Source of the DNA: an uncultured Chloroflexia bacterium
GTDB lineage: Bacteria; Chloroflexota; Dehalococcoidia; GIF9; UBA5629
Direction: 5' to 3'
DNA: 64,000 bases
NCBI GenBank assembly: GCA_963848815.1
Contig: CAWKFY010000017.1
Location: 13,852-77,851, forward strand
Below, one piece after another: positions 28,936 through 37,727 of this stretch. Position numbers and translations under genes: made by a program. The stretch's first letter is position 1. The number at the start of each line of letters is the position of its first letter. The notes under the pieces were generated by a model that was not told where the DNA came from, searched no databases, and saw only the letters and a program-made list of their open reading frames with translations.

Positions 28936-30336
28936 TTACTCCGGCTCCAGGTCCTTTTTGCGGGAGACTTTTTCCAGTCCCAGCCTGAGCGCGGCAGCTA
29001 CGTTATCCGCTTTGATTATCTCAATGCCGTTAATGCCGCTAATAGCCTTTTTGAATGTGCCCGGTATAATGCAGCGGGTGAAGCCCAGCCTGGCAGCTTC
29101 GGAAATGCGCCTTTCGATCTGAGTGACCGATCTCAGCTCGCCGCTCAAGCCTATCTCGCCGACCGCAGCAGTCCCCGGTATGGCCCTGGCATCACGAAAG
29201 CTGGAGGCTATAGCCAGTGCGATGCCCAGGTCTGCAGCCGGCTCCGAGATTTTAATTCCGCCCGTCACGTTTACGATCACATCCTGGTTATAGAGTCCCA
29301 CTCCGGCCCTCCTGGTCAGGACGGCGGAGATCATCAGCAGCCGGTTGAAATCTACGCCGTTGCATATACGCCGTGGAGGACCGTAAGCCGAAGGGCTGGT
29401 CAGCGCCTGGATCTCCACCAGCAGCGGCCTGCTCCCCTCCAGCGTGGGGACAACGGCTGCTCCGATAGTGCCGTTCATGTAGGATTCAAGGAAAAACTGC
29501 GAGGGGTTGGGCACTTCCACCAGGCCGGCTCCGCCCATCTCGAACACTCCTACCTCGTTGGTCGAGCCGAAACGGTTCTTGGCGCTCCTCAGGATGCGAT
29601 AACTATTGAATGCTTCTCCTTCCAGGTAAAGCACTACGTCCACGATATGCTCGAGGGCCTTGGGCCCGGCGATCGCGCCATCCTTGGTCACATGGCCCGA
29701 GATAAATACGGCCACGCCCGACTTTTTAGCCCATCTCAACAGTCGCAGGGTACATTCACGTATCTGGTTGATGCTGCCGGGAGCGCCGTTGATATCATCC
29801 ATATAGACCGTTTGAATCGAATCGACGATAACAAGCGTGGGTTCGGCGGCTTCGAGCCTGGCCATAACGTTATCCATGTTGGTTTCAGGGTAGATGAAGA
29901 GTCCCGTTCCATTAACATTCAGCCGGTCGCCGCGCATCTTGAGCTGCTGCGACGATTCCTCACCGGAGATATAAACGACCTGGCCGCCCCTGGAGGCCAC
30001 GGCATCTGAAACCTGGAGCAATAAAGTGGACTTGCCGATGCCCGGGTCACCGCTTATGAGGACTACCGACCCTGCAACCAGGCCGCCACCCAAGACGCGG
30101 TTCAATTCCTCAATGGAAAAAGCGATGCGGGCATAGCTGTCCCGCTGCACCTTGGCCAGCTCATGAAGGGGGCTGCCGGCGTCGGCGGCTTTTGCGCCGG
30201 TATGTTTGGTTACCGCCACGGTGCTTTCGACCAGGCAATTCCACTCCTGGCAGCCCGGACAGCGGCCTTCCCACTTGGGAGATTCCCGTCCGCATTTCTG
30301 GCAAATATAAACCGTCTTGACTTTAGATTTTTCCAA
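28936..30336 (-). CDS. radA: DNA repair protein RadA/Sms
   Basis: CQKCG...GRCPGCQEWN zinc finger, GDPGIGKST, KNRFG motif, Lon-like C-terminus. Confidence 0.97.
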   Translation of the reverse strand: MEKSKVKTVYICQKCGRESPKWEGRCPGCQEWNCLVESTVAVTKHTGAKAADAGSPLHELAKVQRDSYARIAFSIEELNRVLGGGLVAGSVVLISGDPGIGKSTLLLQVSDAVASRGGQVVYISGEESSQQLKMRGDRLNVNGTGLFIYPETNMDNVMARLEAAEPTLVIVDSIQTVYMDDINGAPGSINQIRECTLRLLRWAKKSGVAVFISGHVTKDGAIAGPKALEHIVDVVLYLEGEAFNSYRILRSAKNRFGSTNEVGVFEMGGAGLVEVPNPSQFFLESYMNGTIGAAVVPTLEGSRPLLVEIQALTSPSAYGPPRRICNGVDFNRLLMISAVLTRRAGVGLYNQDVIVNVTGGIKISEPAADLGIALAIASSFRDARAIPGTAAVGEIGLSGELRSVTQIERRISEAARLGFTRCIIPGTFKKAISGINGIEIIKADNVAAALRLGLEKVSRKKDLEPE

Positions 30337-30495: not shown

Positions 30496-33015
30496 TTACG
30501 GATTGCTGTCGCTGAGCAGCATATTGCCCTCGCCGGGCAACAACTTGCTTTCTCCGCTCAGCAGTGCGGCGGTTTCAAGCTTGTGAATGACTATCTGCGT
30601 GCCGTCATAATCGACCAGCACCTTGGAGCCGCTCTCATATTCACCGCGCAGCACGTTCTCGGAAAGCTTGTCTTCCACCTCTTGCTGGATGACGCGTCGC
30701 AGAGGACGGGCGCCGTATTCAGGATCGTAACCTTTCTCGCCTAGAAAATCCCTGGCGGCTTCAGAAATCTCCAGCGTAATCTTTTTCTCCGCCATGGAGG
30801 ATACAGCCTCGCGCAGCATAAGGTCGACGATCTGGCGGATATGCTCCTTGGTGAGGGCATGGAAGACCACGGAGGCATCTATGCGATTCAGGAACTCCGG
30901 CCTGAATTTATTCTTCATCTCACGCATCACGATATCTTTCATCTTCTCGTAAGCGCCCTGGCGGGTTTTGACTTCATCAGCGTTAACGTTGAAGCCCAAC
31001 CCCTTATTCTTCTTGATCTCATCGGCGCCGACGTTAGACGTCATGACCATGATGGTATTGCGGAAGTCGACCCTGCGGCCTTTGGCATCCGTAAGGTGAC
31101 CATCATCCATGATCTGGAGCAGGATGTCGAACACGTTCTTATGCGCTTTCTCAATCTCGTCCAGCAGTATTACACAGTAGGGGGTGCGCCTGACGGCTTC
31201 GGTAAGCTGGCCTCCCTCTTCATAGCCGATATATCCCGGAGGAGCGCCCACCAGCCTGGCGACATTATGCTGTTCCATAAATTCGGACATATCCAGCCTG
31301 ACCATGGCATCTTCACTCTTGAACATGAATTTGGCCAGGGCTTTCACCAGAGCGGTCTTGCCCACGCCGGTCGGACCCAGGAAAATGAAGCTGCCGATGG
31401 GACGGCGTGCGTCCTTAAGGCCCGCCCGGGCACGGCGTACGGCCCGGGCGATGGTAATGATGGCTTCATCCTGGCCCACAATATCTTCATGCACCGCCTT
31501 CTCCATTTTGAGCAGGCGTTCCTTTTCATCCGTGGTGAGGCTGTCCTTGGGTATGCCCGTCCACATGCTGACAACCTCGGCGATGTCCTCTTCGGTCACT
31601 ATCGGGGTTTCCTTCTTCTGAGTATCCTGCCATTCCTGCTCCATGCTCTTGACCTTGTTCTGGAGCTGGACTTCCCTGTCGCGAAGCTCGGCAGCCATCT
31701 CATATTGCTGTGAAGCGATGGCATTGTCCTTGTCGCGCCTCAGGTTTTCCAAAGCCTTCTGCGCTTCGGCGATGCTTATGGGGACAACACCTTTCTTGAT
31801 CCTGACACGGGAAGAGGCTTCATCCATAATATCAATGGCTTTATCAGGAAGGAACCTGTCGGATATGTACCGTGCAGCCATAGAGGCCGCAGTTTGGAAA
31901 GCGTCATCATTAATAATTAATTTGTGATAGTCTTCGTAATGGTGCCGGATGCCTTTCAGGATAGCAACGGTCTGCTCTACAGTCGGCTCGGTCACCATGA
32001 CGGGTTGGAAGCGCCTCTCCAGTCCGGCATCTTTCTCGATATATTTGCGGTACTCGTCCAGCGTGGTGGCGCCGATGAACTGGATTTCGCCCCTTGAAAG
32101 CGACGGCTTCAGGATGTTGGAAGCGTCAACAGCCCCCTCTGCTGCGCCTGCGCCCACTATGGTATGCAGCTCATCGATGAAAACGATGCAGTTGCCTGCG
32201 CTTTTTATCTCGTCGATAACTTTTTTCAGCCTCTCTTCAAACTCACCGCGATACTTGGTGCCGGCGACCAGCGATCCTATATCCAGGGTTACCAGCCGTT
32301 TATTCCTGAGAGGTTCGGGGATATCTCCCGTAACGATCTGCTGGGCCAGCTTGGCCACGATGGCCGACTTGCCTACACCCGGCTCGCCTATCAGAGCGGG
32401 ATTATTTTTAGTGCGCCGGCTGAGGATCTGGATGATGCGTTCGCACTCCTTTTCCCTGCCGACGATGTTGTCCAGCTTGCCATTACGCGCCAGCCCGGTA
32501 AGGTCAACGCCCAGTTGATCCAGGATGGGAGTCCTGGCACCTTCCTTGGTGACAGCCCTGGCCTGGCCGCTGCCGGTATTGAGCAGCTTGTTGACCTCGG
32601 TCATTACACGGTCGAGGGTCACGCCCAGGCTCTCCAGCACACCCGCCGCCGATCCCTCACGTTCCCGCAACAGGCCCAGCAGGAGATGCTCTGTGCCTAT
32701 ATAGCTATGGTTCAGCCGCCTGGCTTCATCCACTGCCAGCTCGATAACTTTCTTGGCCCTGGGAGTGAGTCCCACCTCACTGGTATTGGGACGGCCGCCG
32801 CGGCCTACTATAAACTCAACAGCTGACCTCACCTTGCTCACGGCTACGCCGAGATTGGCAAGGACCTGGCTGGCAACGCTATCTTCCTCCGCTATAAGAC
32901 CGAGTAAAATATGCTCGGTATCGATATAATTGTGACCGAAATGCTGCGCCTCTTCCTGCGCACGGGTAAGCGCCCGGCGAGCACGCTCAGAAAACTTTTC
33001 AAATCTACTTGCCAT
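30496..33015 (-). CDS. clpC: ATP-dependent Clp protease ATP-binding subunit ClpC
   Basis: Clp N-domain repeats, GEPGVGKS, UVR middle domain, GPTGVGKT, FRPEFLNR, GARPLRR. Confidence 0.96.
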   Translation of the reverse strand: MASRFEKFSERARRALTRAQEEAQHFGHNYIDTEHILLGLIAEEDSVASQVLANLGVAVSKVRSAVEFIVGRGGRPNTSEVGLTPRAKKVIELAVDEARRLNHSYIGTEHLLLGLLREREGSAAGVLESLGVTLDRVMTEVNKLLNTGSGQARAVTKEGARTPILDQLGVDLTGLARNGKLDNIVGREKECERIIQILSRRTKNNPALIGEPGVGKSAIVAKLAQQIVTGDIPEPLRNKRLVTLDIGSLVAGTKYRGEFEERLKKVIDEIKSAGNCIVFIDELHTIVGAGAAEGAVDASNILKPSLSRGEIQFIGATTLDEYRKYIEKDAGLERRFQPVMVTEPTVEQTVAILKGIRHHYEDYHKLIINDDAFQTAASMAARYISDRFLPDKAIDIMDEASSRVRIKKGVVPISIAEAQKALENLRRDKDNAIASQQYEMAAELRDREVQLQNKVKSMEQEWQDTQKKETPIVTEEDIAEVVSMWTGIPKDSLTTDEKERLLKMEKAVHEDIVGQDEAIITIARAVRRARAGLKDARRPIGSFIFLGPTGVGKTALVKALAKFMFKSEDAMVRLDMSEFMEQHNVARLVGAPPGYIGYEEGGQLTEAVRRTPYCVILLDEIEKAHKNVFDILLQIMDDGHLTDAKGRRVDFRNTIMVMTSNVGADEIKKNKGLGFNVNADEVKTRQGAYEKMKDIVMREMKNKFRPEFLNRIDASVVFHALTKEHIRQIVDLMLREAVSSMAEKKITLEISEAARDFLGEKGYDPEYGARPLRRVIQQEVEDKLSENVLRGEYESGSKVLVDYDGTQIVIHKLETAALLSGESKLLPGEGNMLLSDSNP

Positions 33016-33070: not shown

Positions 33071-33099
33071 ATTATATGTTTAACCATACTTGAAGTCAA
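33071..33099 (-). promoter_or_regulatory. Sigma70 promoter of the clpC-radA-ispDF-cysS block
   Basis: TTGACT (33094-33099), 17 bp spacer, TATAAT (33071-33076). Confidence 0.7.
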
Positions 33100-33164
33100 A
33101 GAGTGGCAGCTTCAAATAAGATCAAAGTCGATGATAGTGTCAGGAAAAAGAGGTATAAAAAAAG

Positions 33165-33285
33165 CCTCTGGCAGTGGCATATTTTCCCAAGGAATCCCTC
33201 CCTCAGTATCGTCTGCGCTGAAGCGTTTCACTTCCGTGTTCGGGATGGGAACGGGTGGTGCCGCCTCGCTCTAACCACCAGAGGA
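33165..33285 (-). rRNA. rrf: 5S ribosomal RNA (stand-alone)
   Basis: Minus strand TCCTCTGGTGGTTAGAGCGAGG...CCCGTTCCCATCCCGAACACGGAAGTGAAACG...GGGAAAATATGCCACTGCCAGAGG; conserved CCGAAC loop; ends pair as helix I. Confidence 0.97.
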
Positions 33286-33297
33286 CTAATGGAATAT

Positions 33298-33325
33298 AGT
33301 TTATAATAAGAGCATATGGTGTCAA
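33298..33325 (-). promoter_or_regulatory. Dedicated promoter for the 5S rRNA gene
   Basis: TTGACA (33320-33325), 16 bp spacer, TAAACT (33298-33303), ending 12 nt before the mature 5S 5' end. Confidence 0.7.
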
Positions 33326-33341
33326 ATAGCGTATGTGTAAT

Positions 33342-34885
33342 GTTACTGTGACTGATTTGTCGGTCTTGAGTTAGAGAGGCCTTGTAAAACATTATATCGC
33401 TATCCTGGTTAGAGATTTCAATATTTCAACCCAAGGACGGGCTGCATGTGGGCCAGATATCGCTGGCATTCCAACATTGAAATAACTCGTGTAATCATAT
33501 TTTATTGTACGATCGAGCACTCTCCTTATTTGTTTTTCCGGCATTTTTATAGATGTAGTTTCAGCGATGCGGAAGCACAGGCGATCCGCCAGAGTCCCTT
33601 CACGTATACTGATTCTCAGCCAGAGCATCCGGCGTATTCCCTGACGTGACCAACTCATGCCCTGATTCTTCATCCTTCGTACGATCAACTTGTCAATATT
33701 TCCCTCGATAGCCCCTGTTCTTCGTAAGGTAATTCCCTGTTGTCCCATGCTTTCCCGATAATCCTGCAATCCGGAGGCATTGGAACTGATATATTTGATC
33801 ACCTGCCTGATGTCTTTGGCCTTATCGTCTGGCGCCCGGTCTACCGCTTCTTTGAGCTGCTTAAGAGCGGCATCATGTTGGCCACAACTGCAATGATATT
33901 GAACCGACCGTAAGATAGCTCGATCATGCTTCAGTGCATGACAAAGAGCATGGTTGAGGTGATATCGGCATAGCTGATATTGGCCTCCGAAATAATCAAC
34001 ACCTTCTTTGATCCATGTTGCGCCGTCTCCACCGATGACGTATTGCGTCCCACCAAGATCGTATTTCTGGTGCAGTTTTAAGGCCATTCCTGTCCAGAAT
34101 CGATCAGTGCTTAATATGTCTGCATAAAGGGTCTTATTGACCGTGCTGTAACGGTCTTTGCCTACTTTCCGCCAGCTCTCATAGGCAATGCCCAGCTTTA
34201 CCTCAGCCCTACGTGCCGTTTCCCTTTGCAAGGGTAGCACAACGCCGTCCGCCTCGATAATCAGACAGCTCGCCTTCCTGCCTTCAGTCTGTTTCAACTC
34301 GCCAGTATCTTCAAACCAAGCCGCACTACGATCTGCATCATCTTGACTGTCGGCAATAGCCAATTGGACTAACCTGTGAATGGTTCTATAAGAAAGGCCG
34401 ATAGAAGTGGTTCTGTTTAGTACCTCAGCGCTTCTGCGGAAAGGCATCTCGGCCGCCAACCCGCATGCCAGCTCTTTCACAGCCAAGGTGGTGTGACGGT
34501 ATTTGCCCATACCCATCAATTCATCCAGCGGATATTGATATTTCCCGTCTCGCCCTCGATATTGTCTCCTGGTAACCATGATCGGTCCAAGCCTGGTCCG
34601 ATACCAGGTGCTTCGCTTATGAGCGACTACTAAATCAGCAGGCCTATGCTGTTGTATCAGCGAGTCGATCTGCTCAAGTACGTTTCCAAATGCCTTACGT
34701 GCGCATTCAACTGCTTTGTCGAATAAATCCTTCTCCATTGAGACTACGATCTGTTTGAGTTCCTCAGCGTTTTTGGTTAGACTGGTTTTCAAGAGAATCT
34801 CCTTTATAAATTTATTGGTGGTAGATTTATTTTGTGAGGTCTCTCTTGCTTTTTGCAACCTGACCGACAAAACTGTCACTGTATC
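33342..34885 (-). mobile_element. ISLre2-family insertion sequence (1544 bp)
   Basis: 24-bp imperfect terminal inverted repeats (33342-33365 GTTACTGTGACTGATTTGTCGGTC and 34862-34885; 20/24 match); 9-bp direct repeat ATGTGTAAT at 33333-33341 and 34886-34894. Confidence 0.9.
33392..34792 (-). CDS. ISLre2-family (UPF0236) DDE transposase
   Basis: IEADG, IGGDGATWI, LCRYHL, GAIEGNI..RRMK..GMSWS..G. Likely TTG start at 34792 behind an AAGGAG RBS. Confidence 0.88.
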   Translation of the reverse strand: MKTSLTKNAEELKQIVVSMEKDLFDKAVECARKAFGNVLEQIDSLIQQHRPADLVVAHKRSTWYRTRLGPIMVTRRQYRGRDGKYQYPLDELMGMGKYRHTTLAVKELACGLAAEMPFRRSAEVLNRTTSIGLSYRTIHRLVQLAIADSQDDADRSAAWFEDTGELKQTEGRKASCLIIEADGVVLPLQRETARRAEVKLGIAYESWRKVGKDRYSTVNKTLYADILSTDRFWTGMALKLHQKYDLGGTQYVIGGDGATWIKEGVDYFGGQYQLCRYHLNHALCHALKHDRAILRSVQYHCSCGQHDAALKQLKEAVDRAPDDKAKDIRQVIKYISSNASGLQDYRESMGQQGITLRRTGAIEGNIDKLIVRRMKNQGMSWSRQGIRRMLWLRISIREGTLADRLCFRIAETTSIKMPEKQIRRVLDRTIKYDYTSYFNVGMPAISGPHAARPWVEILKSLTRIAI

Positions 34886-34915
34886 ATGTGTAATAAAGCA
34901 GTAAATAATCGAGAG

Positions 34916-35959
34916 TTATATTTTCTTATATTTAGTAGGATCAGTCGGAGGAATATAATAAGTTGCCACGACAGGGCTTGGCCCCAATGTCTTTGATCTT
35001 AAAAATGCAGAGTGATTTGTGGGTGCGAGATGTACTTCGAAAGGAGGGTATATTCGCTTAAACCTACCAAGAATTCGATTTCTCAGGATATCCATTTTAG
35101 AAGCTGCCTCAGATGAGATAAAAAATACAGGACAATTTGGATCTTGGCAATTGCAAGGCCTTATCTCTCCCTGCCTTAGACAATCATCATATGTTATCCT
35201 TAAAAGATTGAGTTCCTTTACAATTTCAGATAAAGCTTTCTTAAATCTCTGTTTTTTTATTTGGTGTCTGCTCGGTATCCTTCGTATTTCTGTACCGTCC
35301 CTTAAACGATGAATACCTGTATTCAATGCCTCAATCGTATCGGTAATTGCTTTCTTAAACGCTGGAATTGAACTTTCACTTTGGAAAGGGGTGTAGAAAG
35401 CCGGTCTATCGAATAATTCTGCCATTAGAGCTAAAATCTCGACATCGTTTAATAATTTAAGCTGCTCAATAAATGAACTCAAATCAGATGGAGACTCTGG
35501 AAACTCTTCACCTTGCACAAATCGTTTGAGTAGAGATTCGGCTTCTGCTCGTAGCCGCTCTTCAAACTCTTGCCCAGACCATATACTACAACTACGAATA
35601 CCTTTTTTCGCAACGAAATTTCTTATTTTATCACGTAGTCGCGCTGAAATATTTCCTCCTAAAACAAGAATAAATTCATCTGGAACCCCAAACGGACCGG
35701 ATACAATAAGGTCCACATCTTGCACGACCTTAGAAATTGTTAACCTTTTCCTATTTGCACATTGAATACAGACTTTGTTGTACTTGCTATTACCAGATTC
35801 TCCCCAAATGTCACGTCCCAAATCTGTCCCAAGTTGTCCATACCAATCTAGGGAGCGCCATCTCCGGGTACGCAGCATATAAGCAAAAACAAGTCGTTCA
35901 AATTGTATACCACCAAAATCATCAAAATGCACTTTTTGAACCAGTATTGCGGGACTCAT
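34916..35959 (-). CDS. Orphan restriction endonuclease-like protein (Mrr/PD-(D/E)xK-like N-domain plus unknown C-domain)
   Basis: FERLVFAY...G.DLGRDI...CIQCANR...WSGQEFEERL resembles Mrr-type nuclease folds; AT-rich; no methyltransferase nearby. Confidence 0.6.
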   Translation of the reverse strand: MSPAILVQKVHFDDFGGIQFERLVFAYMLRTRRWRSLDWYGQLGTDLGRDIWGESGNSKYNKVCIQCANRKRLTISKVVQDVDLIVSGPFGVPDEFILVLGGNISARLRDKIRNFVAKKGIRSCSIWSGQEFEERLRAEAESLLKRFVQGEEFPESPSDLSSFIEQLKLLNDVEILALMAELFDRPAFYTPFQSESSIPAFKKAITDTIEALNTGIHRLRDGTEIRRIPSRHQIKKQRFKKALSEIVKELNLLRITYDDCLRQGEIRPCNCQDPNCPVFFISSEAASKMDILRNRILGRFKRIYPPFEVHLAPTNHSAFLRSKTLGPSPVVATYYIPPTDPTKYKKI

Positions 35960-36022
35960 TACAATTTACCCCTCTTTATCAGTATAAATATGTTCATTCA
36001 GCTCTAGGAGAATTGTCAAATA

Positions 36023-36214
36023 TCAAGAAAAGAATCTGGCTTGAGCGGGCTGGCCTTTCTTATAAGGGATGCCCAGGTGTTCATAGGCCAGGCGCGTGGC
36101 CGTGCGTCCCCGGGGGTCCTGTCGAGAAATCCAAGTTGCAGCAAATACGGGTCGTATATGCCTTCGATGGCGTCGGACTCCACTTCCAGCTTGCCCATAG
36201 CTTCGAGTGTAACC
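36023..36214 (-). pseudogene. ruvB: Displaced, diverged ruvB 3'-end fragment with a 108-nt in-frame internal deletion
   Basis: 36053-36100 is identical to 44518-44565 (48 bp) and 36181-36214 is identical to 44755-44788 (34 bp). The segment between has 9 substitutions and 1 indel. ruvB 44647-44754 is absent. Restored C-terminus KKGQPAQARFFS* versus [11 protein letters not shown]. Confidence 0.9.
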
Positions 36215-36218
36215 TCTC

Positions 36219-36888
36219 TCACCGCCACCAGCGTATGTTTTTCCTGGGGATTTCTTTAACGTCTGGCGGTGGTTCCAGGGCCTTTGTCACTTTATGCGCC
36301 ATATAACTGATGGGTTTTGTTAACGGATGCAGAGGTCCGAGCCTTTGTCCGAAACTCTGGGCTGTAAGGTCGGTGTAAAGGCTTAACGTCTGGGCTGCCG
36401 TCAAAAAATCCCAGCAGACGAAAATCTCTTCGGCAATCCCGAAAGGCATGCTTAGAGGTATAAAGCCCCGCGCGTACTCGACAGCCCATACCCCGTTGGT
36501 GAAATTCATGGCGCGCGCCTGGCCCGGACCGACGTAGATGCGGTCACCGGGTTTATAAATCGTCTTCTCGAACTGACCTTCCGCGTAGTACCAGGTCTCT
36601 CCATCAATAACAGTATCCCAGAATCCGGCGAAATGACGTCCGGAATGGCCTTCAGAGCCGATGGGAGTTCCCCAAATCATGATATATTCGGTCAGTGGAA
36701 GCATAGTAGAGCTTCATCTGGATCATCGCGCCTCCGGCGATGCTGTATATCCAGGGCTGCGAGAAATCGAGCACTTTCGGATAGTGGGTTGCAAGAGCAT
36801 TGGCGAAAGCATCGAACATCTGCGGCTTGGGCATACCCAGGCACTCCATAGCGCACTTGTGAACGATATCAGGATCAAATCTGGCCAT
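36219..36888 (-). CDS. ERG2/sigma-1 receptor family protein (C-8 sterol isomerase-like); frameshift near 36697
   Basis: Joining ORF 36652-36897 with ORF 36219-36704 gives W...IAGGAM.QM.LYYASLTEYIMIWGTPIGSEGHSGRH...WAVEYARGFIP.SMPFG, the ERG2/SIGMAR1 signatures including the conserved EY.RG glutamate. Confidence 0.88.
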
Positions 36889-36914
36889 TGGCATCAACCT
36901 CTTTCTCTGGTGAT

Positions 36915-37727
36915 TTATACAACGTCATCGAACGGGCCGAACATCTTTTCCATCGATCCGCTTACGATACGAATAGCGCGGGCGCGGGACACCATTTTCC
37001 CCATGAAAAAGTATCCCAGCCGGTTAGATCTCCCCGCGATGAGACTTGGTCGTTTCCCCAGCGCTTTCAACGCCTCGGTGACCGTCGGCTTTACGTCCAT
37101 CACTTTCACGAACCGCGCCGGCTTCGGCTCGTTGGCATCCCAGCCGGGTGTTTTCGTTGACCCCGCCATGAACCCGAGCACGTCGACCCCATACCGGCCC
37201 AGCTCGTACCAAAGGCTCTCGGCAATAATCAGATTGTAGGCTTTGGTCGCCGCATAGTTGGCGCAATAGGCGGTCCCGTACATCGCCGAAGCAGAAGAAA
37301 GAAAAATGATACCTCCCCGCCTCCGCTCGGCCATCTTTCTGCCGAAGTGATGGGCCAGGATGAGCCCCGCCCGCGTGTTGACGTGCAACTGCTTCACAAG
37401 CTGGTCAACGGAATGATTGAGAAAGGGACGGACTTTTGACAAACCCGCATTATTCACCAGCAGGCCAATCTCCAAAGAGTCGGTAACAGGAGTGATCTCT
37501 TTAAGTATGTCCTCCCGGCTAAGGTCGAGCGCTATTGTCCGGACTTCTACGCCGTAGTCTTTCTTTAGCGCGTCCGCCCTGGCTTTGAGCAAATCAGCGT
37601 TAGTGGCAACTAGAATCGTATTCAGGCCCCGTTCAGCACATTGGCGGGCGAATTCGGCGCCGAGCCCCCGTGAAGCGCCGGTGATCAATGCCCAGGGACC
37701 GTATTTTCTTAAGAAAGAAGATGGCAT
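36915..37727 (-). CDS. SDR family oxidoreductase (17beta-HSD/KAR-like subgroup)
   Basis: YGPWALITGASRGLG, LLVNNAG, SS, YAATKAY catalytic motif. Confidence 0.9.
   Translation of the reverse strand: MPSSFLRKYGPWALITGASRGLGAEFARQCAERGLNTILVATNADLLKARADALKKDYGVEVRTIALDLSREDILKEITPVTDSLEIGLLVNNAGLSKVRPFLNHSVDQLVKQLHVNTRAGLILAHHFGRKMAERRRGGIIFLSSASAMYGTAYCANYAATKAYNLIIAESLWYELGRYGVDVLGFMAGSTKTPGWDANEPKPARFVKVMDVKPTVTEALKALGKRPSLIAGRSNRLGYFFMGKMVSRARAIRIVSGSMEKMFGPFDDVV

Follow-up and report, generated by a model that had tools for sequence, protein, structure and literature searches.

The 5S rRNA gene described here is very probably the single functional 5S gene of this Dehalococcoidia bacterium, forming a small transcription unit of its own that has split off from the rRNA operon. 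The gene lies in a stretch of 64 kb, analyzed as a whole and hereafter called the window, where it matched Rfam family RF00001 with 93.3 bits (gathering score, 38) over model positions 1-120; the gene is thus full-length and not truncated. No further Rfam family beyond 5S was detected in the 64-kb window, from which 23S and 16S rRNA genes are thus absent, and ARAGORN found no tRNA gene in it. The 5S gene is therefore the sole rRNA gene of the window, in agreement with the initial annotation, which had described a self-contained 5S unit with no 23S or 16S neighbor and which proved accurate in its description of the sequence apart from small counting differences. The surrounding features are listed in Table 1. 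The 5S sequence is near-identical across the genus, and clpC is its conserved downstream neighbor across Dehalococcoidia. On the upstream side lies an insertion sequence (IS); when it is removed in silico, the open reading frame (ORF) at 34916-35959 becomes the nearest upstream gene on the same strand.

Table 1 Features of the 5S rRNA locus in window coordinates, with related sites elsewhere in the assembly (G000) in contig coordinates
Feature	Position	Strand	Remarks
ispD, ispF, cysS	downstream of radA	-	minus-strand gene order
radA	28936-30336	-	downstream of clpC
clpC	30496-33015	-	Pfam Clp_N, AAA, AAA_2, ClpB_D2-small; downstream of 5S
Predicted clpC promoter, TTGACT-17-TATAAT	33071-33099	-	11/12 consensus positions; family-wide conservation; downstream of 5S
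AGAGG/CCTCT pairing	33149-33169	-	5 bp, 11-nt loop; proposed earlier
T7 tract	33157-33163	-	starts two bases after the 5S 3' end; directly after helix I
5S rRNA gene	33166-33282	-	RF00001; helix I extendable to 33164-33284 in the fold
Predicted transcription start	33289-33292	-	from promoter geometry only; about 7-8 nt after the -10 hexamer
Putative -10 hexamer, TAAACT	33298-33303	-	pattern scan; 16-nt spacer to the -35 hexamer
Putative -35 hexamer, TTGACA	33320-33325	-	pattern scan; invariant in 14 family genomes
9-bp target duplication ATGTGTAAT, promoter-proximal	33333-33341	.	7 nt from the -35 hexamer
IS, 1544 bp	33342-34885	-	UPF0236 / ISLre2-type; 16 nt upstream of the -35 hexamer
UPF0236-type transposase ORF	33392-34879	-	upstream of 5S
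9-bp target duplication ATGTGTAAT, distal	34886-34894	.	same 9-mer on the far side of the IS
347-aa ORF	34916-35959	-	without Pfam match
ERG2-like gene	36219-36704	-	minus-strand gene order
Short-chain dehydrogenase	36915-37727	-	minus-strand gene order
Other IS copies	G000 C19:75145-76689, C19:144497-146044, C20:46589-48133, C20:1-1543		IS-sequence identity at least 99%
23S rRNA gene	G000 C31:42998-45944		complete
23S unit	G000 C31:42800-46200		L003 6820-10180

The initial annotation had proposed that the 16S, 23S and any other rrf copies be located in the genome. In the assembly, which comprises 46 contigs and is 75% complete, one 5S copy and one 23S gene were present, and no 16S gene was found. 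The 23S gene is complete and lies in the interior of a 77-kb contig. It is preceded by two tandem promoter-like sites (TTGACA-16-TATACT and TTGATT-17-TATACT) and followed, after 50 nt, by a tRNA-Met(CAT) gene with an encoded CCA end and then by a 16-bp hairpin terminator. This tRNA has the features of an initiator, with a C1xU72 mismatch and three G-C pairs (GGG/CCC) in the anticodon stem. Neither 5S nor 16S was found near the 23S gene in the 17 kb examined, including no 16S within 7 kb upstream. The same order of genes recurs in relatives: in 10 of 11 members of the order the 23S gene is followed by tRNA-Met(CAT) within 30-70 nt, and no 5S occurs in the 2-2.5 kb after this pair in these genomes.

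The distances involved are best seen in two congeners, the genus having been sampled from a fen and from soil in Denmark. In the closed genome of one of them (G004, 2460 kb), the 16S, 23S and 5S genes are located at 7.9, 212 and 2303 kb, respectively, so that the rRNA genes are 165-370 kb apart, with approximately 370 kb between 5S and 23S; in the other (G005), they occupy a single contig at 2, 110 and 287 kb (105-282 kb apart). The 16S gene is separate from both 23S and 5S in these two genomes and in G007, and it stands alone in the three relatives examined. Both 5S and 23S were found in 17 genomes of the order; in 16 of them the two genes are separated by more than 280 kb or fall on different contigs, and the remaining genome (G030) is ambiguous, with its 5S gene at a contig end. 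Thus, where the initial annotation had left a choice between a fully unlinked and an extra 5S gene, the first description stood, as the 23S gene is on another contig, and the second was not borne out, as this 5S gene is the only one in the assembly.

A pattern scan of the sequence preceding the 5S gene identified the hexamers TTGACA and TAAACT separated by 16 nt, at the very place where the initial annotation had put a promoter. Together they agree with the sigma-70-type consensus at 10 of 12 positions, TAAACT itself accounting for 4 of 6. The -10 hexamer ends 15 nt before the 5' end of the 5S gene as delimited by Rfam, or 13 nt before it when helix I is extended by two C-G pairs, and the 12 nt given previously was thus approximately right. 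In an alignment of the upstream regions from 14 genomes in 10 genera of the family, TTGACA was the sole invariant block and its flanks were of low average identity; a -10 box (TAAACT, TATATT, TATACT, TATAGT or TAAAGT) followed at 16-18 nt. The congeners have the same TAAACT at a spacing of 17 nt, and other families of the order have a -10 box of the TATACT type combined with TTGACA or with weaker -35 boxes. Downstream of the 5S gene, the same type of scan found a better consensus match in the predicted clpC promoter than in the 5S promoter.

Promoter-like sites were also counted by scanning the 110 nt before the 5S gene of each clpC-linked locus for which 400 nt or more of upstream sequence was available. 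Such sites occurred in 25 of the 32 clpC-linked 5S genes, vs none of the 32 control windows placed 290-400 nt upstream and 10.6% of shuffled sequences, and they were found in the linked 23S-5S spacers of only 2 out of 20 species. The difference between the unlinked genes and the linked spacers indicates that promoter-like sites accompany the unlinked state. Taken together, the invariance of TTGACA in 14 genomes and this enrichment back the earlier proposal that the 5S gene has its own promoter, which is strongly supported on sequence grounds.

The spacer between the two hexamers (33304-33319) is itself divergent. Its first 9-10 nt are unlike those of all five congeners (CCATATGCT here vs GAGCGTAAAT), and it is one base shorter, with 16 nt vs 17 nt. 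The -35 hexamer and the stretch CTATTTGACA are kept despite the divergent adjacent spacer, and everything downstream of CTATTTGACA is identical to the congeners. The divergent spacer may represent a small replacement or an assembly error.

The IS carries a transposase ORF with a match to PF06782 (7e-51), and UPF0236 transposases are what we take to characterize the ISLre2 family. Four further copies in the assembly, with 99.0-99.7% identity, define the ends of the element; both flanks are available for four of the five copies, and each of the three flanked copies outside the window has its own 9-bp duplication. The UPF0236-type transposase, the defined ends, the 9-bp duplication and the multiple copies together place the element in the ISLre2 type. 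Since 16 nt of original sequence lie between the end of the IS and TTGACA, the IS did not supply the promoter. A hybrid promoter with its -35 hexamer taken from the IS end was likewise rejected, since the IS stops at 33342 and congeners free of the IS have the same hexamer. At two of the four flanked IS sites (that in the window and C20:46589), the sequence GGTGTCAAA, the reverse of a -35 box, lies 13-22 nt outside the same IS end, which could be a target preference or chance.

The region beyond the IS varies among close relatives. In three congeners, ruvB ends approximately 80 nt upstream of the promoter-5S-clpC segment and is itself preceded by rpoC. Between ruvB and the 5S promoter, the closed genome G004 carries one gene with a TIR domain and one with DUF7508 (L022 78-1090), and the genome studied here has the 347-aa ORF, the ERG2-like gene and the dehydrogenase (window 34916-37727); three other congeners have no accessory genes at this place.

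Several other explanations for the isolated 5S gene have to be considered. Five near-identical copies of the IS exist, which can mislead assemblers, and the genome is a metagenome-assembled genome (MAG) in 46 contigs; the IS might thus have induced a chimeric join, with the 23S gene lying upstream of 5S in the true genome. The sequences flanking the IS make this extremely improbable. A perfect 9-bp duplication borders the element (a chance match has a probability of about 4e-6), and matching duplications of this kind point to simple transposition into a continuous site, as a chimeric join between repeats would not yield them. In addition, five congeners without an IS at this site have the same promoter-5S-clpC segment with no 23S upstream, the 5S gene of the closed congener is far removed from its 23S gene, and the 23S gene of the assembly is complete, lies in the interior of its contig and has a tRNA-fMet gene and a terminator downstream. 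Misassembly at the IS, which the initial annotation had named as the observation that could overturn its reading, is excluded by the target duplications, the IS-free congeners and the closed congener genome. It is also very unlikely that the gene is an extra orphan copy besides a canonical 23S-5S pair. A second copy could be missing from a MAG of this completeness; however, the assembly yields one 5S match, no 5S lies downstream of its 23S gene, and no second 5S gene was seen in any of the relatives, a set that includes the closed genome and several of 97-99% completeness. Among 40 relatives, 34 have one full-length 5S gene above the Rfam cut-off, one has a gene split by a gap (G002) and five have none. 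The low-scoring 5S of G002 (L153, G002:C13:1865-2034) proved to be a normal gene broken by an N scaffold gap together with a short duplication, that is, an assembly artefact.

An alternative hypothesis concerns transcription rather than location: most of the 5S RNA might be cut from a longer read-through transcript that comes from the transposase or ruvB side or runs into clpC, with the promoter-like motif playing a minor role. In its favor, the transposase gene and, in congeners, ruvB run in the same direction as the 5S gene and end 50-110 nt upstream of it; moreover, distant relatives have the -35 box of clpC a few bases after 5S and no T-run, so that in those organisms processing can generate the 5S ends. 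However, across 13 genera TTGACA does not vary, nor does its distance from the -10 box, while its surroundings diverge, promoter-like sites are enriched before unlinked 5S genes and not in linked spacers, and a stable RNA needed at ribosome level is unlikely to rely on the promoter of a repair gene or a transposase. We therefore consider this hypothesis unlikely as the main source of 5S RNA. As the IS transposase points the same way as the 5S gene, some contribution of read-through from the IS could occur in this strain. The explanation that we prefer is a single 5S gene transcribed as its own unit. The IS is a recent, strain-specific simple insertion that disturbed neither the core promoter nor the first 16 nt ahead of its -35 hexamer.

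With transcription starting at the predicted position, the 5' leader in this genus would measure approximately 6-9 nt. At the other end of the gene, the T7 tract noted in the initial annotation is present, and the minimum free energy structure of the predicted transcript has helix I closing right in front of the resulting U7 run. We infer that the tract is likely the 5S termination signal. A terminator scan called no canonical terminator (hairpin plus T-run) after the 5S gene; the U7 run does directly follow helix I, but this stem closes the multi-branched 5S structure with its three-way junction, which is an unusual geometry for a terminator. Five genera of the family, namely this one and those represented by G020, G023, G024 and G019, have a T-run of 6-8 after the 5S gene, and in the remaining five the run is short or missing.

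The initial annotation had also pointed to a second hairpin, AGAGG/CCTCT, with a T-tract. The pairing does exist in the sequence, but its standing as a functional element was not upheld, as the hairpin is weak and unconserved. Its folding energy is -4.5 kcal/mol (z = -0.9), with 40 of 200 shuffled sequences folding equally well, and five congeners have CCCTT in place of CCTCT. Moreover, its AGAGG is the same AGAGG that closes helix I of 5S, so that the two structures are mutually exclusive. A role as terminator was thus rejected for a hairpin that is weak, not conserved and in competition with helix I. The 3' tail of the 5S transcript would consist of the U-run at most.

A near-mature 5S RNA needing little processing, as the initial annotation had suggested, is plausible in this genus from the arrangement of these elements. 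Between the -10 box and 5S there are 12-18 nt in this genus, as in several relatives, but 28-38 nt in genera elsewhere in the family; a near-mature leader is thus not a conserved property. RNase M5 (TIGR00334) was absent from 21 genomes of the order, with Bacillus subtilis and Lactococcus lactis as positive controls. Maturation by RNase M5 was accordingly rejected, and the 5S RNA of these organisms would mature by another route.

Two further arrangements were observed at the ends of 5S genes elsewhere. In one family of the order (f4; L016, L017, L027-L029 and L031), a 6-bp pairing of leader and trailer, GAGAGC...GCTCTC, lengthens helix I and has the appearance of either a processing stem or a mature 5S of greater length. 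In four distant relatives (L049, L052, L055 and L061), the -35 box of clpC, TTGACC, begins inside the four T's that follow the 5S gene (GAGGCTTTTGACC...TATAAT), and clpC starts just 47-66 nt after 5S. As this leaves no room for a terminator between the two genes, 5S transcription may enter clpC in these organisms.

The extent of the separation was assessed at two levels. With clpC as a handle, 80 related loci were collected from public genomes, and the 5S gene was found just upstream of clpC in 37 of them; all 37 are from Dehalococcoidia or Chloroflexota MAGs, except for one record labelled Deltaproteobacteria. Such a survey of the clpC-rrf neighborhood in relatives had been suggested in the initial annotation. 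A class-wide survey covered 92 Dehalococcoidia species genomes having both a 5S gene and a 23S 3' end, the latter located by BLAST with the last 502 nt of 23S. [quoted passage not shown] Thus, 23S and 5S are apart in 52 of the 92 species (20 on the same contig and 32 on different contigs). In 13 of the 32 genomes with different contigs, at least 3.8 kb of other sequence lies upstream of 5S; contig ends make a few of the 32 ambiguous. Linked and far-apart states were never mixed within one family. Spacers of 82-106 nt between 23S and 5S occur in one family, whose closed genomes are small (1.4-1.9 Mb); this fits the 23S-5S pair that the initial annotation had given for Dehalococcoides.

The linked and intermediate genomes suggest where the operon was broken. 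An initiator-type tRNA-Met gene lies inside 10 of the 20 linked 23S-5S spacers examined (L130-L138 and L143), and this uncommon layout, with a tRNA between 23S and 5S, looks ancestral for the class. One relative (L054) shows the order 23S, a 97-nt spacer, 5S and clpC. In four of the six intermediate genomes the extra DNA is located between tRNA-fMet and 5S. Apart from a single HNH endonuclease, this DNA encodes ordinary genes, most of which lie on the opposite strand; the intermediate cases showed no integrase, which leaves the integration of an island at tRNA-fMet unsupported as the cause of the split. The linked spacers with tRNA-fMet, together with the gaps between tRNA-fMet and 5S, indicate that the operon broke at the tRNA-fMet/5S junction. 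These gene orders are most simply read as an ancestral series 23S-tRNA-fMet-5S-clpC in which the break fell after the tRNA gene and before 5S.

We propose that this break took place in an ancestor of the order. The 5S gene would have been kept beside clpC, now carrying a promoter, while the 23S-tRNA-fMet pair, still joined, would now be found elsewhere as a unit of its own and the 16S gene would likewise stand alone. In the present genome, the sigma-70-type promoter TTGACA-16-TAAACT would place the start of transcription just a few nucleotides ahead of the mature 5S 5' end, the RNA would probably end at the U7 run right after the closing helix I, and trimming would then be limited to short 5' and 3' tails. 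For a broader combined statement we see an even chance: that more than half of Dehalococcoidia species may have three single-copy rRNA units (16S; 23S-tRNA-fMet; 5S) derived from a break at the tRNA-fMet/5S junction, with living intermediates (gaps of 0.8-5 kb with opposite-strand genes), a 5S promoter only where the gene is unlinked, a 5S RNA born almost mature in this genus (leader of about 6-9 nt, end at the U-run) and no RNase M5 in the lineage.

Separation of the 16S or the 5S gene from the other rRNA genes has been reported in several bacteria, and complete separation of all three was reported for Leptospira interrogans (2019, PMC6582327). As in L. interrogans, the 16S, 23S and 5S genes are at separate chromosomal sites, here shown in congeners, and each needs a promoter. 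Unlike L. interrogans, which belongs to a different phylum, the lineage studied here keeps the initiator tRNA 3' of 23S and clpC beside 5S, with one copy of each rRNA gene. In some CPR bacteria 23S and 5S are also unlinked, a separation called 'very unusual in bacteria' (Lui et al. 2021, PMC8172020). The likeness to the CPR genomes is that 23S and 5S are parted by distance or by intervening genes; however, those genomes are tiny and their owners probably symbionts, whereas the present organisms form a Dehalococcoidia lineage with genomes of approximately 2.2-2.5 Mb, the separation is order-wide, and neighboring rRNA genes in the closed congener are hundreds of kilobases apart (165-370 kb).

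In Helicobacter pylori, Thermus, Rickettsia and Mycoplasma suis, the 16S gene is apart from a 23S-5S pair (PMC6582327, PMC3091866). These species resemble the present lineage in having a split rRNA operon whose parts have independent promoters, but they keep 5S with 23S, which this lineage does not. The family of small closed Dehalococcoidia genomes with 82-106-nt spacers shares the layout of a separate 16S gene and a 23S-5S pair. Unlinked 16S and 23S genes are well documented in Dehalococcoidia and GIF9 (Brewer et al., bioRxiv 10.1101/705046; ISME J 2020). The cases of Brewer et al. concern the same class and, as here, a phylogenetically coherent trait of free-living slow growers with single-copy rRNA genes; however, only the 16S-23S distance was measured there and the term '5S rRNA' is absent from the text (10.1101/705046), so that the split between 5S and 23S is what is added here. 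Our literature search found no published account of 5S unlinking in Dehalococcoidia, an absence that is not proof.

Taken together, the separation of 5S is genuine and shared by the whole lineage, but as a layout of rRNA genes it belongs to a known kind and represents no new mechanism. What our analyses add is modest, namely the class-wide picture, the break at the tRNA-fMet/5S junction and the occurrence of promoters only where the link is broken. In practical terms, a contig with 5S and without 23S is not a sign of misassembly in these lineages, which bears on the rules used for genome annotation and MAG quality, and amplicon methods based on the rRNA operon will fail on these organisms.

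Textbooks explain the equal amounts of the three rRNAs by co-transcription of their genes. That a large clade of free-living organisms has single-copy rRNA genes, each transcribed separately, would imply that co-transcription is dispensable. The series from linked through interrupted to fully separated genes offers a way to study how a stable-RNA gene acquires a promoter after the breakage of its operon and, if our reading is true, the clade would be a natural system for studying how the amounts of 5S, 23S and 16S are balanced without co-transcription.
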